Shown: piece by piece, positions 1,127-15,167 of the stretch
Layout of the letters: every line of letters starts with the position of its first letter
Position numbering within the stretch: position 1 is the stretch's first letter
DNA from: a virus
Lineage: Duplodnaviria; Heunggongvirae; Uroviricota; Caudoviricetes
Length of the DNA: 25,775 nt
Strand: one strand, 5' to 3'
IMG/VR virus record: IMGVR_UViG_2609459795_000007
Span: 1 to 25,775 of that record
Position numbers and translations under genes: made by a program
Notes under the pieces: generated by a model
The model's database searches: none
The model's input: the letters and a program-made list of their open reading frames with translations, nothing else
What the model was told of the DNA's origin: nothing

Positions 1127-3115
1127 TTAAAAAACATTCTTATCCCCGTGGAAAAAACGTGCAACGTTCAATAGCCAGTCGGGGGTTTTTATTTCATTTG
1201 AATTTGCTAGTATTTCTAAATATTTTTCGCAAAATTCATTTTTTTTTCCTGGTAATTCGAAATAATCCTCAATAGCTTTTTTTTCTGTAATGTTAAGATT
1301 CAAAGCGCCTCCCGATACTGAAGACTCCATTAACTGTGGGGTTTCCATAAAGGACAAACTAGTTTCTCCTTTAGTGTAAAGCATTTTCAGAGTTTCTACG
1401 TAGAAATCAGCATTAAGAGACTGCTCAATTTCTGTAGGTGGATAAACTCGATCATCAGTAACTTTAACAAGGCTTATATTAGATAAGTCTTTATCGAGCA
1501 AGAGTCTTCTTATTTTTATACTTGGTATTGTATCTGTAGCATCATATGGACTATATTTGTGATCTGTATCTAATAATAATAATACTTTTCCTGAGATTGT
1601 TGCTTTGCGATCCTCTAACGCCATAACGAGTAAATTATATATTTTTTTTACTGTAGGGGAGCCACCGACGGATAAAACTATTAGTTTCTCAATGTTTTCA
1701 TAATCCAAGTGAGCGGAAATATATTTTCTATCAGTTTTTCCTTCGCACAATATCCAGTTATAATTATTTCCAGATGTTATTGAATAAACAATTGATTGTG
1801 CTAAGTCGTGATTGCTTTTCATTTCTAAAACGTCAAGGTAAGAGCCATTTGACTCTTTTGCTAGTTCCTTTAATTCATCCTTGTAGTTTTCCAGATCGAG
1901 TGCTTTGATGTATGTTTGAGAGGGGGAAATATATATGGCTGTACCTGAGCCTGTAACAGGTAAAAAACCATACCAATGAGTTGTACAAATAGTCTGTATG
2001 CCTAGGTCGCTAATTTTTTTTATTTTATCAAATTGATTAAAACATGATGTGGCATGTAAGGATAATTCAGGTTCATCAACAGCAAGAATTGTTGAGTGCT
2101 GAGATTTTTGTGGATTATGTTTTAAGAAATTGGTAGCAAGATCTAGCAATGCTTTTCTTTTTTCTCCTGAGCTTAAATTTTGCACAGGGGTCTCTTTATT
2201 AACATCATCAATATGATGTAATATTTTATCACTAAAATATGATTCAATTATTTTAGATATCATATGACGTTGAGTGAAACTATTTTGTCGCTGAGATGGT
2301 TTTTTAAATTGATATCGCCCCTCAAGCTTTGTAGTTAATTGTCTAATAAAATCATTTAAGTGCGAATTTATTGCTGTAATATCCTTTTTCTTAATGATTT
2401 TACTGATTTTTTGTTGGAGATTTTCACCTAATAAAGACTGTAATAAATCGCTTTCAATCCTTGAGTATTCGGATGTGGTTATTTCTGCAGGTAGGTAAAT
2501 ATAATTATAGATATCCTTAATTGTTATTAATAGCTTAGGTAGTATATTGTTAAATTGATATTTTTTATTATTCGTCGAACTATTTTCATTTGCGAGATCA
2601 TCAATTTGCAATCGATAATCATCTATAGATTCGAAAATTGACATGTAGGGGCGAGGAATATCATTTGCAGTTTCTTTTATTATCCCAAGGGGAATTAATA
2701 AATATTCATCTGAAGAATATTTGTATTCTAGTTGCTTCCTGTGTGATATAAATTTCTCAGCTATAGGACGTTGCAATGTATTAAAAACATCACTTTCTAT
2801 TTGCCAAGTGATATCGCTTACGATTTCTAATGCTTTGTATAGGGAATTATTTATCTTTAGCTTGTTTTTATTTATTAAATAAATTGGCACAATGAATGGT
2901 TCTCGAGTATCGAAACCTTGACTGCGCGCTTCATTGTTGATATCAAGTCTATTGATATCAGTTTTATTTAGTACAATATCTAATGCTTGTAATATTGAGC
3001 TTTTCCCGACACCATTTTCACCAATGAGCCAAGAGGATTTATTGTTTAAAGTGAGAGGGATATAATGTTGATTTTTGAAATTCTTGAAATTTCGTAAAAT
3101 AACACCAATAATCAT
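1127..3115 (-). CDS. OLD-family ABC-type ATPase with C-terminal Toprim-like domain (P2 Old-like or fused PARIS AriA-AriB-like candidate defence nuclease)
   Basis: 662-aa ORF; N-terminal Walker A GENGVGKSS; signature-like LSSGEKR; Walker B ILAVDEPELSLH; C-terminal ILCEGKTD ... LLLDTD resembling Toprim acidic motifs; strongly AT-rich relative to flanking genes. Confidence 0.7.
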   Translation of the reverse strand: MIIGVILRNFKNFKNQHYIPLTLNNKSSWLIGENGVGKSSILQALDIVLNKTDINRLDINNEARSQGFDTREPFIVPIYLINKNKLKINNSLYKALEIVSDITWQIESDVFNTLQRPIAEKFISHRKQLEYKYSSDEYLLIPLGIIKETANDIPRPYMSIFESIDDYRLQIDDLANENSSTNNKKYQFNNILPKLLITIKDIYNYIYLPAEITTSEYSRIESDLLQSLLGENLQQKISKIIKKKDITAINSHLNDFIRQLTTKLEGRYQFKKPSQRQNSFTQRHMISKIIESYFSDKILHHIDDVNKETPVQNLSSGEKRKALLDLATNFLKHNPQKSQHSTILAVDEPELSLHATSCFNQFDKIKKISDLGIQTICTTHWYGFLPVTGSGTAIYISPSQTYIKALDLENYKDELKELAKESNGSYLDVLEMKSNHDLAQSIVYSITSGNNYNWILCEGKTDRKYISAHLDYENIEKLIVLSVGGSPTVKKIYNLLVMALEDRKATISGKVLLLLDTDHKYSPYDATDTIPSIKIRRLLLDKDLSNISLVKVTDDRVYPPTEIEQSLNADFYVETLKMLYTKGETSLSFMETPQLMESSVSGGALNLNITEKKAIEDYFELPGKKNEFCEKYLEILANSNEIKTPDWLLNVARFFHGDKNVF

Positions 3116-9917: not shown

Positions 9918-10253
9918 TTACGAATGATCATTCTGTTTAGTCTTCATGAGAAAATCCCGAATCTTTGCCAAGTTTGAATTTTCGGGGATTGAATCCATGT
10001 ACGGATCACGCTCAAACACTAATTGCTCAGATTCAACGAAAGCCTGCCACTCTACTGGGTCTAGCTCAAATCCCATTGCTGTCATATCACTTTCATCTTC
10101 CCCCTCGATCCAGTGGACTAAATAAAACAATTCATCATCAGGAGAATCATCCTCACCATCAACAATATCAACATCGGTTACAGTGATACGTAGGGTGGGA
10201 TCGATTTTTGAGACATAAATTCCTAACTGTGGTATAGGGGGAATATTGTTCAT
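9918..10253 (-). CDS. Strongly acidic small protein of unknown function (candidate DNA-mimic/anti-defence or regulator)
   Basis: 111-aa ORF with AAAAGGAG RBS 6 nt before ATG; about 26 Asp/Glu versus about 7 Lys/Arg by hand count; AT-rich cargo region. Confidence 0.6.
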   Translation of the reverse strand: MNNIPPIPQLGIYVSKIDPTLRITVTDVDIVDGEDDSPDDELFYLVHWIEGEDESDMTAMGFELDPVEWQAFVESEQLVFERDPYMDSIPENSNLAKIRDFLMKTKQNDHS

Positions 10254-10632
10254 GGAAACTCCTTTTATTGGTGTTTGCTATTTGAATAAAAATACGCCAA
10301 ACAGAGTGTTAACTGTGAATATGGAAAGAATCGTTGTAAGTACCCCGCTTAGGTGTCCCATTCTATTTTAGAGGTTCTCGTGCATATGGATTATGTTATC
10401 TGAAAGTTAACTTCCGCTTCCCGTTCACAGCGAACATTCATCTTTGTAAACCCGTATGATCCGTTTTTCAAGTGGCCATTCAGATACGGATTTTCACTTC
10501 CTTGACAGTGCATGACTATGCTGCATGAAATCGCATGATCGATTGAGGATCGTCTTTGCTCAGATCCGCCAGAACTGGCGGGCTTTTGCTCATGTTATGC
10601 ATGTGCATGAAAACCACTGCATAAAGCGGGCA

Positions 10633-10651
10633 GGCGTGGCGGGGATACGAG
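10633..10651 (+). other. Candidate cos site (cohesive-end sequence) of P2/186 type
   Basis: GGCGTGGCGGGGATACGAG followed by GCGCGCGCTGA; the first 13 nt match the 186/P2 cohesive-end sequences as I recall them (GGCG[T/A]GGCGGGGAAAGCA[T/C]); position between gene A region and portal gene as expected. Confidence 0.35.
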
Positions 10652-10743
10652 CGCGCGCTGAACCAGATAGATATATAAATTAAAACAGTTGTTCGGATAA
10701 AGGATTCTTGATAGCTTGAGCTTTTTCCTAAAAGGATTTTCCA

Positions 10744-12303
10744 ATGTCTAAAAACGAAATATCTCAGTTAAGAGATGAACAAGTAGATAACTTGATCATT
10801 TTGTGTGATGAAGCTATGAGGGCTACGCCTGAAAATGTCAAGAGATTCATAGAACCCGCGCCTGGCGTTCTTGCTCAATCGAAAGCCAAGCAGCACAGTT
10901 TGATTTTTGGTAGAAGGGGCTCTGGTAAGTCCTCATTGTTGAGGAAGGTAGTTGCAGATCTAACAATAGATAGAAGACCAATTTCTTTTGTTGATATGGA
11001 GACATTTAAAGGTCATTCATACCCTGATGTCCTAATTAGTGTTCTTATTAAAAGCCTACAAGAATTCGAGGTTTGGTTAGAAACTGCTGCATTAACCCCA
11101 GCTACTAAAACTACTTTTTGGAATCGAATTTTTGGTAGAGCGCCGGAAAGGAAACCTTTCAAAAAAAATCCTACAAATGAGCTTGTCCGTGAGCTCAAAG
11201 GCATCATTCAAGATTTAGAAAATAAACTTTTGCAGCCAGAAGAAATTAATGTGCAAAGAAAGGAAACTTCCACAAGAAGTTTTGAAGCTTCTGGTAATGC
11301 TTCCTTGAAGCAAGGTCCAGTAGATGTAGGAGTGGGAGTTAAAAAAGGAAATACAGGTACCAAAGAAATTAGTGAAGGATATAAATCATTAAAAACTGAA
11401 TACTTACATCAAAATATACTTAAGTTTCAAAGGTTTTTTAACAAACTTTCCGAATTGTCTGAAGGGCCGGCATATTTAATACTTGATGATCTATATCATA
11501 TTAGAAGAAGTGATCAGGCTAAAGTTATTGATTATTTTCATAGGGTTGCCAAAGGAAATGGTTTGTGGTTGAAAATTGGTACTATCAAGCATAGAAGTGA
11601 ATGGTATATTCATACAGATCCTCCTACTGGTGTTAAACTTGGTGATGATGCAAAAGAAATAAATATAGATATTTCTTTGGAAAAATTTGCAACTTTAAAA
11701 CAGTTTATGCAAAAAATACTCACTAATCTAATGGTAGAAACGCCGCCTATCACAGTAAATGGACTATTAAATACGACTGCAGTAGATAGGTTGATTATTG
11801 CTTCGGGTGGTGTTACTAGGGACTTTATTGGGATATTTACTAAAGCTATTAACCATGCGAGAGAAAGAGGGCCAGATCATCCTAGAGGTCCTCGAATTGG
11901 TGCAGAAGATGTGAATCTTGCTACTGGTGAATATGGTGATATCAAGCGTGAAGAATTTAAATTAGATGCTGATGATGATCGTATTGCCTTGGAGGAAGCA
12001 TTCACAAAACTTGTGGCATTTTGTTTGAATGATGCAAAATGTAATATTTTTCTAATTAATCAAAAAATGACTGGCCCTGTCAAGGATGCTATTAACCAGT
12101 TAATTGATTTAAGATTAGTGCATTTAGTCCAGTCTCGGGTCACTTTGAAGAAAGGTGCTGATGGCTTAGTTTTTGAGGCATATATGCTGGATACTAGTCA
12201 ATATACAGCATCTAGAAAAGTTCGAGATCTTAATTTGATTGACTTGAATTCCAAGACATTTAGTGAAGAGATACGTAAGAAAAAACTTCTCTATGAAGGT
12301 TGA
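10744..12303 (+). CDS. Orphan P-loop NTPase (AAA+/STAND-like), candidate single-gene defence protein
   Basis: 519-aa ORF, AAGGA RBS; Walker A GRRGSGKSS (aa 57-65); Walker B-like YLILDDLYH about 190 aa downstream; AT-rich; located between cos-like site and portal gene. Confidence 0.75.
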   Translation: MSKNEISQLRDEQVDNLIILCDEAMRATPENVKRFIEPAPGVLAQSKAKQHSLIFGRRGSGKSSLLRKVVADLTIDRRPISFVDMETFKGHSYPDVLISVLIKSLQEFEVWLETAALTPATKTTFWNRIFGRAPERKPFKKNPTNELVRELKGIIQDLENKLLQPEEINVQRKETSTRSFEASGNASLKQGPVDVGVGVKKGNTGTKEISEGYKSLKTEYLHQNILKFQRFFNKLSELSEGPAYLILDDLYHIRRSDQAKVIDYFHRVAKGNGLWLKIGTIKHRSEWYIHTDPPTGVKLGDDAKEINIDISLEKFATLKQFMQKILTNLMVETPPITVNGLLNTTAVDRLIIASGGVTRDFIGIFTKAINHARERGPDHPRGPRIGAEDVNLATGEYGDIKREEFKLDADDDRIALEEAFTKLVAFCLNDAKCNIFLINQKMTGPVKDAINQLIDLRLVHLVQSRVTLKKGADGLVFEAYMLDTSQYTASRKVRDLNLIDLNSKTFSEEIRKKKLLYEG

Positions 12304-12313
12304 GATAATTAGA

Positions 12314-12333
12314 AGAGGCGCTCTAGCGCCTCT
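12314..12333. terminator. Bidirectional intrinsic terminator-like hairpin between the convergent NTPase and portal genes
   Basis: Perfect 8-bp stem agaggcgc/gcgcctct with 4-nt loop tcta; T/A-rich flanks on both sides. Confidence 0.5.
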
Positions 12334-12375
12334 TTAGATTACTAATGTTTTATGGTTATTTTAATTTTAAGGTGA

Positions 12376-13401
12376 CTATAAAACATAATCTTTAAAGCGA
12401 ACTATTTCATCACTTACCCATGTGTTTACCTCCTCAAGCCTTTTTTGTAAAGGAATAAGTTCATTACGAACAAAGACCAAGCTCGCTTTTTCCACATCCC
12501 CAAAACCCCCAACATTATTTGGCATTATCCCCATCATCTGAGGCGGTACGCGGTGCGCAGCCATCATGTCATCGCGGCTGACATTTTTGATATTCAGAAA
12601 CTCATCCTTCGCCGCGACCTCTGACAACGGGATAATCTGAAGCCCGTCCTTTTTGCCGTTAGGTGAGTACATAAACAGGTTGCGGAAGTTACCCGGTCCT
12701 TTGGCACTTTTCATCGCGTTGCGGAGGTTGTTCACGTCCTCCTGGTTCTGCGCGGCATCGGTCATGTACATGATGAAGCCTGCGTGACTGCCGTTAATGT
12801 AATACTTGCGACGGAACAGCGTGGCGGACTCATTGAGCAGGGCTGACGGAATAGCAGAAAGATAACCGGGCAGGCCGTAGATCTCCTGGTTGATGTCCGG
12901 TTCCATCAGATGAAAGATGCTGCCTTTCGTGAACTGATATGGCTGCGTGGTCATACCGTATTGCACAAACCAGTAGGTATCCAGGTCTAACCCGCGTCGG
13001 GTGTATTTTGCCAAGGCAGATTCAAGGGCGATAACTTCACCGAAGCGGTTCGTGCGTTTCTCCAGGTAGGCGTTACCAAATACCAGATAGTCCTGCACAA
13101 AACGCGAAAAAGCCTGCTGGCTGAGCAGCGGGTGAGGGATGTAGGTGCTGGTCAGAATGTTGCACTTTACTGCAATCGGGGAACTATGATGAACGGCAGC
13201 GCGGAAGGTGCGCGCCAGTCCGTCAAAGCTGACGGGCGGCTCATACCAGCGGTCCATCTGTACGCATTCCACATAATCCAGCAGTTCTCGGCGGTCCAGA
13301 ACAGGAACGGGATCGCCGAAGCTGAATGCTTCGGCTGTAGTTTGACTTTTAAGCTGGATCTGTTTCGTCGCCGCAGCGCGGTTCTTCTTACTCTTTCCCA
13401 T
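12376..13401 (-). CDS. Q: Portal protein (P2 gpQ family)
   Basis: 341-aa ORF from ATG (complement of 13399-13401) overlapping the terminase stop (ATGA); size and order Q-P divergent from O as in P2. Confidence 0.85.
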   Translation of the reverse strand: MGKSKKNRAAATKQIQLKSQTTAEAFSFGDPVPVLDRRELLDYVECVQMDRWYEPPVSFDGLARTFRAAVHHSSPIAVKCNILTSTYIPHPLLSQQAFSRFVQDYLVFGNAYLEKRTNRFGEVIALESALAKYTRRGLDLDTYWFVQYGMTTQPYQFTKGSIFHLMEPDINQEIYGLPGYLSAIPSALLNESATLFRRKYYINGSHAGFIMYMTDAAQNQEDVNNLRNAMKSAKGPGNFRNLFMYSPNGKKDGLQIIPLSEVAAKDEFLNIKNVSRDDMMAAHRVPPQMMGIMPNNVGGFGDVEKASLVFVRNELIPLQKRLEEVNTWVSDEIVRFKDYVL

Positions 13402-15167
13402 CAAAAAATCTCCACAATATTGCTGGTATTGGCGGATTCGCCCTGCAGCGGTTCGTTAAACAGTGCGTGCATCGTTGCCCAGGCCAGATCGGCGTGGCTG
13501 GCTTCTTCGCTGCGGCTGGCTTCATAGGTCGGGCGGTTGCCACTGGCGGTGGTGGCGCGACGGATTGCCATAAAGGACTGCGCTATGTCGGTGTGTCCGG
13601 CGTCAAACTCCAGACGGCGGTGGCTGATAATGTCGTAGGCCTTGAGTACCAGGGCGTTTTTAACGTTGGGGTTGTAGACAAACTCCCGGACGGCAGGAAA
13701 AAACGCTTTCACGTTCTCGTAAACCCCGTGACCAACGCCGGTTGAGTCGATACCGATATAGGTCACGTTGTACTGTTCGGTCAGTTTTTTGATGGCGTCA
13801 GCCTGGGCGCGGAAGTCCATTCCGCGCCACTGGTGACGCTCAAGAATGCGGAACTTACCGCCCGGCACGGCTGGCGGCGCCACCACCACGCATCCGGCGC
13901 TGTCGCCGTTCTGCGTACCTTTCGCCGGGTCATATCCGATCCACACTTCGCGCCAGCCAAACGGGCGCAGGGCCAGTGCATGAAAGTCGGTCCAGACTTC
14001 CCAACTGTCCACCATGCACGCCTGCAGCTCGCTGAGTGGGAACACAGACGCGAGATCGTCCACGAACTCACACATCAGCAGGTTCTGGTATTCGTCCGGG
14101 CTGTACTCCATGCGCAACTGGTCGAGGTCGAACAGGTTACAGCCGCTGCGCACCGCATCTTCCACAGTGACTATCTGGCGGTACTGCCCGTCTGCGCACA
14201 GCAGGCCGGGGGCCAGATTGCTGTGGGACAGGTCGATGTCCACCTTATCGGCTTTGTTGCGCCCTCGGTTGAACAGCGCACCGGACCAGAACGGATAAGC
14301 ACTGTGTGTCAGGCTGGATGGCGTGGAAAAATAGGTTTGTCGCCATTTTTTGTGAATAGCCATACCGGAAGCCACTTTGCGCAGTTCTTGGAATTTCGGT
14401 ATCCAGAAATATTCATCCAGATACAGGTTGCCGTGGTAACTCTGGGCCGTGCGGGCATTGGTGCCGAGGAAGTACAGCGTGGCCCCGTTAGGAAGCACCA
14501 TCGGATCGCCTTTCAGCTCCACCTCCACTTCTTTGGCGAAGTCGATGATGTACTGCTTAAAGACGTGGGCCTGAGCCTTGCTGGCGGAAAGGAAAATCTG
14601 GTTACGCCCGGTTAGCAGGGCGTCAATCAGGGCTTCACGGGCAAAATAGAAGGTCGCGCCGATCTGGCGTGACTTCAGCAGGTTGCGGATGCGGTTGGTT
14701 TTTCCGGCTTCCCACCAGTGGCGCTGGTAGTTGAACATGGAGGAATGGAAGATTTCTTCCAGCTTCTCAATCTGTTCATCGGTGAAAACGTTCTTTTCCG
14801 GCTGACGGCGCGGGCCTTTGTTGCGGTTGGCGACGTTAGGGTTTAAGTCGGCTTCGTTGCCGCCATTGTTAAACTTGCCGATCCGCGCATGGCGCTCCGA
14901 CTGGCGCGCCAGCAGGTCAATCTCTTTGAAATCTTTCCCTTCTTTGTGCTCCTTCATAATGAGCTGGCAGTAGCGTGCGGCGGTGGTGAGCTGCATCTGA
15001 TCCAGCGGCCCATAGTCACCCCACTTGTCGCGTTTTTTCCAGCTGTGAACGGTTGCAACTTTCTCGCCCAGCATTTCAGCAATGCGGGCTACGCGGTATC
15101 CCTGAAAGTACAGCAGCATGGCCTGCCGACGGGGATCGAAATCTGCGGGTGTCAGTGTGGTGTTCAT
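13401..15167 (-). CDS. P: Terminase large subunit, ATPase (P2 gpP family)
   Basis: 588-aa ORF; size and position as P2 P; divergent from scaffold gene O. Confidence 0.85.
   Translation of the reverse strand: MNTTLTPADFDPRRQAMLLYFQGYRVARIAEMLGEKVATVHSWKKRDKWGDYGPLDQMQLTTAARYCQLIMKEHKEGKDFKEIDLLARQSERHARIGKFNNGGNEADLNPNVANRNKGPRRQPEKNVFTDEQIEKLEEIFHSSMFNYQRHWWEAGKTNRIRNLLKSRQIGATFYFAREALIDALLTGRNQIFLSASKAQAHVFKQYIIDFAKEVEVELKGDPMVLPNGATLYFLGTNARTAQSYHGNLYLDEYFWIPKFQELRKVASGMAIHKKWRQTYFSTPSSLTHSAYPFWSGALFNRGRNKADKVDIDLSHSNLAPGLLCADGQYRQIVTVEDAVRSGCNLFDLDQLRMEYSPDEYQNLLMCEFVDDLASVFPLSELQACMVDSWEVWTDFHALALRPFGWREVWIGYDPAKGTQNGDSAGCVVVAPPAVPGGKFRILERHQWRGMDFRAQADAIKKLTEQYNVTYIGIDSTGVGHGVYENVKAFFPAVREFVYNPNVKNALVLKAYDIISHRRLEFDAGHTDIAQSFMAIRRATTASGNRPTYEASRSEEASHADLAWATMHALFNEPLQGESANTSNIVEIF

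Follow-up and report, generated by a model that had tools for sequence, protein, structure and literature searches.

The window analysed here, a 25,775-nucleotide stretch of DNA spanning positions 1 to 25,775 of the IMG/VR virus record IMGVR_UViG_2609459795_000007, is a P2-like prophage, in which genes for an integrase and CI, an early operon, replication gene A and a short accessory region are followed by the cos region and by the gene on which we focus, encoding an ATPase. Beyond the ATPase gene lie the convergent portal (Q) and terminase (P) genes and then the capsid, lysis and tail genes. The ATPase gene (positions 10744 to 12303, plus strand) is the only long open reading frame (ORF) on either strand of that stretch, starts with ATG and encodes a protein of 519 amino acids (RefSeq accession WP_023150398.1), assigned, based on the ORF, a Pfam match, a structural model and fold comparison, to the ORC/Cdc6-STAND-type AAA+ ATPases with a C-terminal winged helix. 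The guanine-cytosine (GC) content of this stretch is 0.34 to 0.36 (positions 11001 to 12500), as opposed to 0.52 to 0.60 in the portal, terminase and capsid genes. The locus is thus as described in the first-pass annotation, made from the sequence alone: a single large ORF with Walker A and Walker B-like motifs, AT-rich relative to its flanks and placed between a cos-like site and the portal gene.

The slot occupied by the gene has well-defined borders. On the left, it is delimited by a conserved P2-type cos region (10508 to 10659, no strand assigned), the core of which, GGCGTGGCGGGGATACGAG, is located at about 10634 to 10652 and ends about 90 nucleotides 5' of the ATPase start codon. The cos region is followed by an AT-rich leader, delineated by sequence (10660 to 10743, plus strand), which is partly conserved with copies of the ATPase gene from Pantoea and from an Enterobacterales metagenome-assembled genome (MAG), both of which also retain the cos region upstream. 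A Shine-Dalgarno sequence, AAGGA, is found at 10732 to 10736 with a spacing of 7 nucleotides to the ATG, and a promoter scan called no strong sigma-70 promoter on the plus strand of the leader. The right border is the portal gene Q, recognized by context (12376 to 13404, minus strand). Between the 2 convergent genes lies a GC-rich hairpin (12312 to 12335, no strand assigned), which starts 9 nucleotides past the ATPase stop codon and about 40 nucleotides past that of the portal gene, and consists of 9 perfectly matched base pairs and a further G-U pair, closed by a TCTA loop. Its calculated folding energies on the 2 strands are −20.5 kcal/mol (z −4.75) and −16.9 kcal/mol (z −4.42), and its position matches the annotated tQ terminator of the P2 reference; the terminator scan did not call it and its U-tracts are weak. 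The hairpin is a plausible candidate for a bidirectional terminator. Of the hairpin terminator shared with the portal gene that had been proposed earlier, the hairpin itself is confirmed, and its function as a terminator is plausible. Just downstream, a second, G-U-rich hairpin of 19 bp (12345 to 12386, plus strand) overlaps the portal stop codon and folds on the plus strand only (−18.2 kcal/mol, z −7.3, versus −5.0 on the minus strand); it may be a second terminator or an RNA element of the ATPase transcript. A scan of the window against Rfam produced no match.

Comparison with related prophages revealed that the gene is exchangeable cargo. A megablast search of 5,426 complete Escherichia coli genomes identified the ATPase gene in 4 of them, in each case next to a portal gene, versus about 1,255 genomes carrying the cos flank. 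The presence/absence polymorphism is set on a conserved backbone, which is the same in the prophages of E2348/69 and AR_452 and in the near-identical RefSeq match of the window: the hypothetical proteins WP_001154431 and WP_001059831 are common to E2348/69 and AR_452, and the DinI-like protein is WP_001217575 in E2348/69 (the same accession as in the match of the window) and WP_085456892 in AR_452. Instead of the ATPase, the slot between cos and Q encodes DprA in E2348/69 and a TIGR02391-family protein in AR_452. Up to about 10659, the cos region has the same sequence in E2348/69 and AR_452; beyond that point the sequences diverge, and the alignments place a sharp left swap junction a few bases past the cos core, at about 10660. 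Every alternative cargo and every enterobacterial homologue brings its own, different hairpin before the portal stop. Because the junction lies at the cos core and each cargo carries its own hairpin, the mobile unit can be delimited as about 1.7 kb comprising the leader, one gene and the hairpin. Collectively, these observations strongly support the stretch from about 10660 to 12375 being a self-contained, horizontally mobile one-gene cassette, in agreement with the horizontally acquired cargo suggested in the first-pass annotation.

The position of the cassette is itself informative. In the P2 reference, which lacks the ATPase gene, cosL is 167 nucleotides from Q, and tin and old sit on the A-cosR side; the present cargo lies across cos from them, still inside the gpA-gpQ hotspot, all in agreement with what the first-pass annotation states about P2. 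This hotspot of P2-like phages is established as defence-rich, and DprA+PRTase has been validated as a defence system at the P2 hotspot (Rousset et al. 2022; PMC9122126). Table S5 of the same study lists WP_023150398 in a P2 hotspot with the label "hypothetical," and its sequence is not among the evaluated systems tabulated there (PMC9122126). From the position of the gene, together with its phyletic pattern and fold, we infer a role in defence or exclusion; the gene probably encodes a new single-gene phage-defence protein. The finding that had been named as fatal to such a view, namely, a conserved P2 protein of morphogenesis or replication at this position, is practically negligible as an explanation, since the P2 reference and over 99% of the P2-like prophages of E. 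coli lack the gene and its product has no PHROG match beyond the P-loop.

All structural statements below are based on an AlphaFold model computed from an alignment of 92 sequences (predicted local distance difference test [pLDDT] 91.5; predicted template modelling score 0.88); a model from 30 close homologues was poor (pLDDT 66.9) and was set aside. Residue conservation was scored over 92 diverse family members, and all coordinates within the gene refer to the plus strand. The modelled protein starts with an N-terminal helical extension (residues 1 to 50), followed by β1, the P-loop and β2 (residues 52 to 84, with β2 at 80 to 84). Next, after β2 and at the position of the initiator-specific motif (ISM), comes an insertion of about 155 residues (residues 85 to 241; 10996 to 11466), predicted to comprise 3 long helices and a β-hairpin arm with 2 strands of 16 residues each. 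The arm (residues 166 to 216; 11239 to 11391) is less conserved than any other part of the protein, with an entropy of 3.2 bits, a length range of 3 to 67 residues across the family and a composition rich in S, E, A, G, T and K; its tip (residues 183 to 202) is hypervariable and disordered, with pLDDT below 50 at residues 185 to 202. We considered the possibility that the arms of a ring form a barrel and thereby a membrane pore; this idea was dismissed, as the strands of the arm are strongly polar and charged and show no alternation of hydrophobic residues. The chain then continues through β3 with the Walker B motif, β4 and β5 (residues 243 to 307), a lid containing SGGVxRD (residues 312 to 375) and a long helix (residues 387 to 430) into the winged-helix domain (residues 432 to 490; 12037 to 12213), in which the strand-helix-wing element occupies residues 435 to 482, and ends 29 residues past the winged helix.

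The nucleotide-binding motifs are intact. In the Walker A motif, or P-loop, GRRGSGKS (residues 56 to 63; 10909 to 10932; GRRGSGKSS at 56 to 64), residues G56, R58, G59, G61 and K62 are invariant in 92/92 sequences. About 187 residues separate it from the Walker B motif LILDD (residues 244 to 249; 11473 to 11490; within YLILDDLYH at 243 to 251), where D248 is invariant and D249 is an aspartate in 88/92 sequences and a glutamate in the other 4/92. The sensor-2 motif SGGVTRD (residues 354 to 360; 11803 to 11823) is located within the lid helices (residues 344 to 375), with G355 invariant and R359 present in 92/92. By position only, T280 is the candidate for sensor 1 (T or S in 77/92) and R284 for the arginine finger (R in 77/92). 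In the winged helix, H460 is conserved in 91/92 sequences and D483 is invariant. The invariant or near-invariant residues are R26, G56, R57, R58, G59, G61, K62, D248, D249, Q258, K277, G296, D302, D309, S354, G355, G356, V357, R359, D360, K401, H460 and D483. Eight of these, R26, K277, G296, D302, D309, K401, H460 and D483 (window positions of about 10819 to 12192), lie outside the classical AAA+ motifs, and a conserved loop, HRSxWYxHxDPPxGxKLGDD (residues 283 to 302), takes the place of the usual helix between β4 and β5. Judging by these motifs and by the model, the protein is predicted to be a catalytically competent ATPase, that is, an intact AAA+ switch with a winged helix.

Profile and structure searches, suggested earlier alongside defence libraries as a means to place the protein, yielded both a family and a fold, but no significant match in PADLOC. 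The protein passes the threshold of Pfam family PF24389 (ORC-CDC6-like) with 38.8 bits (gathering cut-off 27; E 6.5e-10), with the best-matching stretch limited to residues 30 to 67. All homologues listed carry the precomputed PF24389 tag, and distant relatives align over about 300 of the 571 profile positions. Sub-threshold Pfam matches included AAA_16, ATPase_2, KAP and nSTAND6. The highest structural similarity of all matches was to proteins of the ATPase_2 family (PF01637), even though the sequence scores below the threshold of that family (21.2 versus 33.2 bits): fold similarity scores were 17.8 for PAB2304 (2qen) and 17.6 for SSO1545 (2fna), both archaeal PF01637-type ATPases with 300 residues aligned, followed by Orc1/Cdc6 (15.1), CED-4 (14.9), NB-ARC resistosomes (about 14), TnsC (14.0), MuB (13.3), Avs3 (12.6), BrxC (12.1) and RdrA (12.1). 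The top Foldseek matches were ORC4 and Cdc6/Orc1, and the structural alignments to Cdc6/Orc1, 2qen and 2fna span the winged helix. Elsewhere, the matches were generic: the BFVD library of viral folds returned clamp-loader, RFC and generic AAA+ proteins, PHROGs returned a P-loop match to a terminase, and profile matches to PDB sequences, which remained at the level of the P-loop and included an artefact from tandem RecA fusions, were discarded. The best NCBIfam match, NF047389 (P-loop ATPase, Sll1717 family; 2.2e-14, residues 35 to 268), was also rejected as a family assignment, given its 53.5 bits versus a cut-off of 75 and its restriction to the N-terminal half. Assignment to the ABC/OLD-type ATPases (Old, GajA, AriA and PtuA) was rejected as well, because the SGG sequence follows Walker B and lies in the lid, the fold is AAA+ and the PtuA match has an E-value of 0.024; in PADLOC, the matches to HerA and PtuA were both above 1e-3.

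The combination of Walker A and B motifs, a sensor-2 arginine in the lid, an insertion at the ISM position and a winged helix is that of the initiator clade of AAA+ proteins, and in ORC/Cdc6 proteins the helical insert likewise follows strand 2 (BREX paper). On the strength of sequence and model, we therefore classify the protein as an AAA+ ATPase of the ORC/Cdc6-STAND superclade and a threshold-level member of PF24389, which supersedes the earlier statement that no family could be assigned. It belongs neither to PF01637 nor to the Sll1717 family, the canonical STAND proteins with sensor and effector, the OLD/ABC ATPases or any PADLOC system. Literature searches found nothing on this ATPase family, the phrase "ORC-CDC6-like" occurring only in the BREX paper, which does not describe the family, and returned no match for Sll1717, for PF01637 in connection with defense or for the accession WP_023150398; the protein is not covered by the supplements of DefensePredictor or by Vassallo 2022.

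The main rival interpretation, itself unlikely, is that the protein is a minimal STAND/NLR-like defence switch: the hypervariable arm would sense a phage protein, and nucleotide exchange and oligomerization would lead to abortive infection. The resting state would be a closed, ADP-bound monomer latched by H460 and D483 of the winged helix, in analogy to the histidine of the NLR MHD motif, and activation would result either in clustering of the conserved 50-residue N-terminal extension on a universally conserved host target or in runaway ATP hydrolysis. However, C-terminal repeat sensors and a recognizable effector domain, both typical of STAND immunity, are lacking: Pfam searches detected no repeat sensor (TPR, LRR or WD40) and no effector domain in the protein or in 8 long relatives (at least 560 residues), and the latter contain no fused effector or additional Pfam domain. 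Furthermore, two traits of the protein, its invariant sensor-2 arginine and its insertion at the ISM position, are those of initiator-clade AAA+ proteins rather than of STAND proteins.

The family is large and widespread, contrary to the designation of the gene as an orphan. A word-indexed search retrieved at least 1,312 homologues, the best 120 of which match over the full length with 57% to 100% identity. An exhaustive profile search recovered 1,175 clusters of relatives at 50% identity, including 364 with E-values below 1e-30; among the best 150 clusters, the full-length matches are almost all 480 to 570 amino acids long. A scan of 185,579 genomes, one per species, identified 264 loci in at least 14 phyla, all with at least 44% identity over the full length. 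The hosts include Gamma-, Beta- and Alphaproteobacteria, Acidobacteriota, Planctomycetota, Verrucomicrobiota, Chloroflexota, Gemmatimonadota, Nitrospirota, Myxococcota, Desulfobacterota, Elusimicrobiota, Actinomycetota and Paenibacillus, among others. Sequence identity does not mirror taxonomy, with some Beta- and Gammaproteobacteria falling into the group with 45% to 50% identity, which indicates horizontal transfer. The GC content of the gene is lower than that of its flanks in 69 of 72 loci, with a mean gap of 9 points, and the gene is nearly absent from plasmids. Among the homologues, pN is 0.13 to 0.26 and synonymous sites are saturated (pS 0.76 to 0.84), which precludes a dN/dS value for the family; low pN in the face of saturated pS points to strong purifying selection.

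In Serratia ureilytica (locus L002, 7716 to 9914), a 73%-identical copy with its own terminator-like hairpin stands alone between the housekeeping genes aroA and cmk, with no mobility gene nearby. In Pantoea sp. BAV 3049 (L006, 9857 to 11936) and in the Enterobacterales MAG (L016, 9857 to 12356), the ATPase gene is preceded by a P2 cos region and followed by portal fragments only, so that both loci are P2-like prophages in decay. Whereas Pantoea has retained an intact copy of 520 amino acids, a frameshift near codon 327 interrupts the copy in the MAG, which may be a pseudogene or reflect an error of assembly. Survival of the gene beyond its prophage thus holds for Pantoea, and the claim is weakened by the MAG copy. 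A more distant relative, with about 30% identity, is present in the Bradyrhizobium phage ppBdUSDA122-1 (L088, 882 to 4040) between the integrase gene and the attachment end at tRNA-Thr, where it is split by insertion of an IS1380-family transposase.

These loci bear on whether the gene benefits the phage rather than the lysogen. Counter-defence or competition between elements during lytic growth, directed at host defences or P4-type satellites, or existence as a selfish passenger, could be envisaged from the location next to cos in a phage and from the occasional presence of anti-defence genes in P2 hotspots (28 of 1,511 elements). Such genes are, however, rare in P2 and usually small, and the intact copy beside a decayed portal gene in Pantoea, the lone chromosomal copies in many phyla and the strong purifying selection all speak against this option, which we regard as highly improbable. 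The Pantoea remnant and the lone chromosomal copies under selection point instead to a benefit that does not require an active phage.

The neighbourhoods were analysed in 80 loci by all-against-all clustering of the ORFs within 6 kb, and no neighbour family occurred in more than 5 of them. The absence of a common neighbour in these loci and the lack of room for a partner in the cassette of about 1.7 kb support the single-gene status that had been ascribed to the ATPase. In 3 loci, an ORF of 587 to 614 amino acids directly adjoins the ATPase gene, with a median gap of 52 nucleotides (one of these is L032:8090-9934), and in the same set of loci 3 immediate neighbours are Gln/Glu-tRNA synthetases; if the ORFs were those synthetases, this would suggest a shared or recurrent insertion site.

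A function in the service of the mobile element was also considered: the protein could be a factor of the Cdc6 type for replication, partition or maintenance, or else a relic of a transposon target-selection AAA+ protein of the TnsC, MuB or IstB type. The resemblance of the fold to Orc1/Cdc6 initiators and to TnsC/MuB would fit such a function, as would the fact that about a quarter of P2 hotspots hold partition systems and no defence genes (PMC9122126). Yet the gene is flanked by no iterons, origin-like repeats or terminal inverted repeats, the 80 loci share no recurrent transposase or partner, and insertions into chromosomes on its own, as between Serratia aroA and cmk, make a replicon function implausible. 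Moreover, with copies in only 4 of about 1,255 P2-like prophages, the gene is dispensable to P2, and its near-absence from plasmids also counts against this explanation, which is improbable overall.

Returning to defence, the interpretation we prefer, tentatively and with slightly less than even confidence, is that the ATPase is a lysogenic-conversion gene, which guards the lysogen against phages or mobile DNA through ATP-driven assembly on DNA. On binding ATP, the protein would oligomerize cooperatively on DNA, as do Orc1/Cdc6, TnsC and MuB, using its winged helix and the much-expanded insertion at the ISM position. Intermediates of the invader's replication or packaging would be blocked or trapped by this oligomer, which would itself be the effector, and the hypervariable tip of the β-hairpin arm would be the likeliest determinant of specificity. 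A more far-reaching version, possible but rather doubtful, is that the protein, a minimal ORC/Cdc6-STAND hybrid, is the founding member of an undescribed single-protein immune family. Its ATP-driven self-assembly, whether on the DNA of the invader or on some intermediate of replication or packaging that is universally conserved, would by itself stop phages, and the hypervariable arm would set the specificity. Self-assembly with neither effector nor partner would account for a cassette of about 1.7 kb working in at least 14 phyla.

Several observations weigh against a defensive role. To our knowledge, an immune ATPase without an effector is unusual, and the literature contains no experimental phage-resistance phenotype for the protein that we could find. 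PADLOC-DB v2.0.0 gave no significant full-length match, the best one being to mad8 (3.1e-6) in the P-loop region (residues 49 to 201), and the antiphage models of NCBIfam stayed below their cut-offs (DS41_1, 16 bits versus 370). With respect to DNA binding, the winged helix carries a modest net charge of +2, and conservation across the wider family does not extend to R465 and K469 of the wing. Beyond the P2 prophages of enterobacteria, housekeeping genes make up most of the first- and second-shell neighbours, the gene shows no clear enrichment in defence islands, and restriction-modification, toxin-antitoxin or defence neighbours occur in only about 10% of the loci. A minority of the neighbours consists of methylases (4), integrases (4), ParE toxins (2), a restriction enzyme, PD-T4-6 and PDC-S02. 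With defence neighbours so sparse, guilt by association is weak and comes mainly from the P2 slot, and the cargo of P2 hotspots is itself partly non-defensive, including partition systems and toxins (PMC9122126). Finally, the conservation of the family, with at least 44% identity across phyla, is unusually high for an immune protein and can be taken either as a clue to a conserved target or as an argument against immunity.

If the ATPase is a defence gene, it would add a compact, portable, single-gene system from the ORC/Cdc6-STAND AAA+ clade, members of which so far act in immunity only when joined by effector domains or by partner proteins. Should the effector-less version be true, the ATPase oligomer itself would be the antiviral agent and would provide a minimal model for target recognition of the NLR/ORC type. 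Its conservation and its occurrence as a loner outside defence islands would make it the type of gene missed by island-based discovery. If it is not defensive, a widely transferred and strongly conserved bacterial Cdc6-like gene would still be worth explaining.

Two further genes of the window deserve mention. Just upstream of cos, the backbone gene at 9918 to 10253 (minus strand; WP_001059831, 111 amino acids), which has no Pfam or PADLOC match, is unchanged in prophages with different cargo. Between the integrase gene and CI lies a second AT-rich cargo gene (1127 to 3115, minus strand; GC content of 0.29 to 0.36), the product of which is a 662-amino acid ABC-type ATPase (AAA_15/AAA_21) with PADLOC matches to AriA (3.6e-23) and Old (2e-17; residues 287 to 496). 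Based on these matches, it is a candidate OLD/PARIS-like single-gene system in the minor int-proximal P2 hotspot (PMC13586616).

How the ATPase relates to known systems can be considered at the level of family, fold and locus. Compared with other members of PF24389, it is alike in overall length and represents a divergent branch, with its best-matching stretch confined to residues 30 to 67. Its closest structural counterparts, PAB2304 and SSO1545, share 12% to 13% identity with it and lack both the 155-residue insertion with its β-arm and the N-terminal extension; we know of no function for archaeal ATPases of this type. From Orc1/Cdc6 (10% to 17% identity), it differs in the lack of an origin context, in being a sporadic accessory rather than a core gene and in an ISM that is expanded about tenfold. 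With the STAND NTPases (CED-4/Apaf-1, plant NB-ARC proteins and bacterial Avs), it shares the core of nucleotide-binding, helical and winged-helix domains and the hhhhDD form of Walker B, but, at 519 amino acids, it is much smaller and possesses a sensor-2 arginine. TnsC and MuB are always paired with a transposase, whereas no transposase recurs in the 80 loci of the ATPase. RdrA of RADAR and BrxC of BREX, neither of which is matched by the protein in PADLOC, are much larger and depend on partners (the RdrB deaminase in the former case; PglZ, BrxX and others in the latter). ATPases of the ORC/Cdc6 clade are an established mainstay of conflict systems, where they invariably come with partners or fused effectors (PMC10853773; BREX paper). 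Within the gpA-gpQ hotspot, P2 Old is likewise a single-gene, NTPase-based exclusion protein, but is not homologous, being an ABC-type ATPase with a TOPRIM nuclease, whereas the present ATPase has no nuclease. Tin, also nonhomologous, is encoded in the same hotspot on the other side of cos, and DprA of the DprA+PRTase system, again nonhomologous, fills exactly the same cos-Q slot on a backbone that is otherwise identical. In light of these comparisons, the hotspot position of the gene is expected, whereas its architecture, distribution and conservation are not, and a lone, effector-less ATPase of the ORC/Cdc6 clade with a giant ISM arm represents a known type of protein in a new form.

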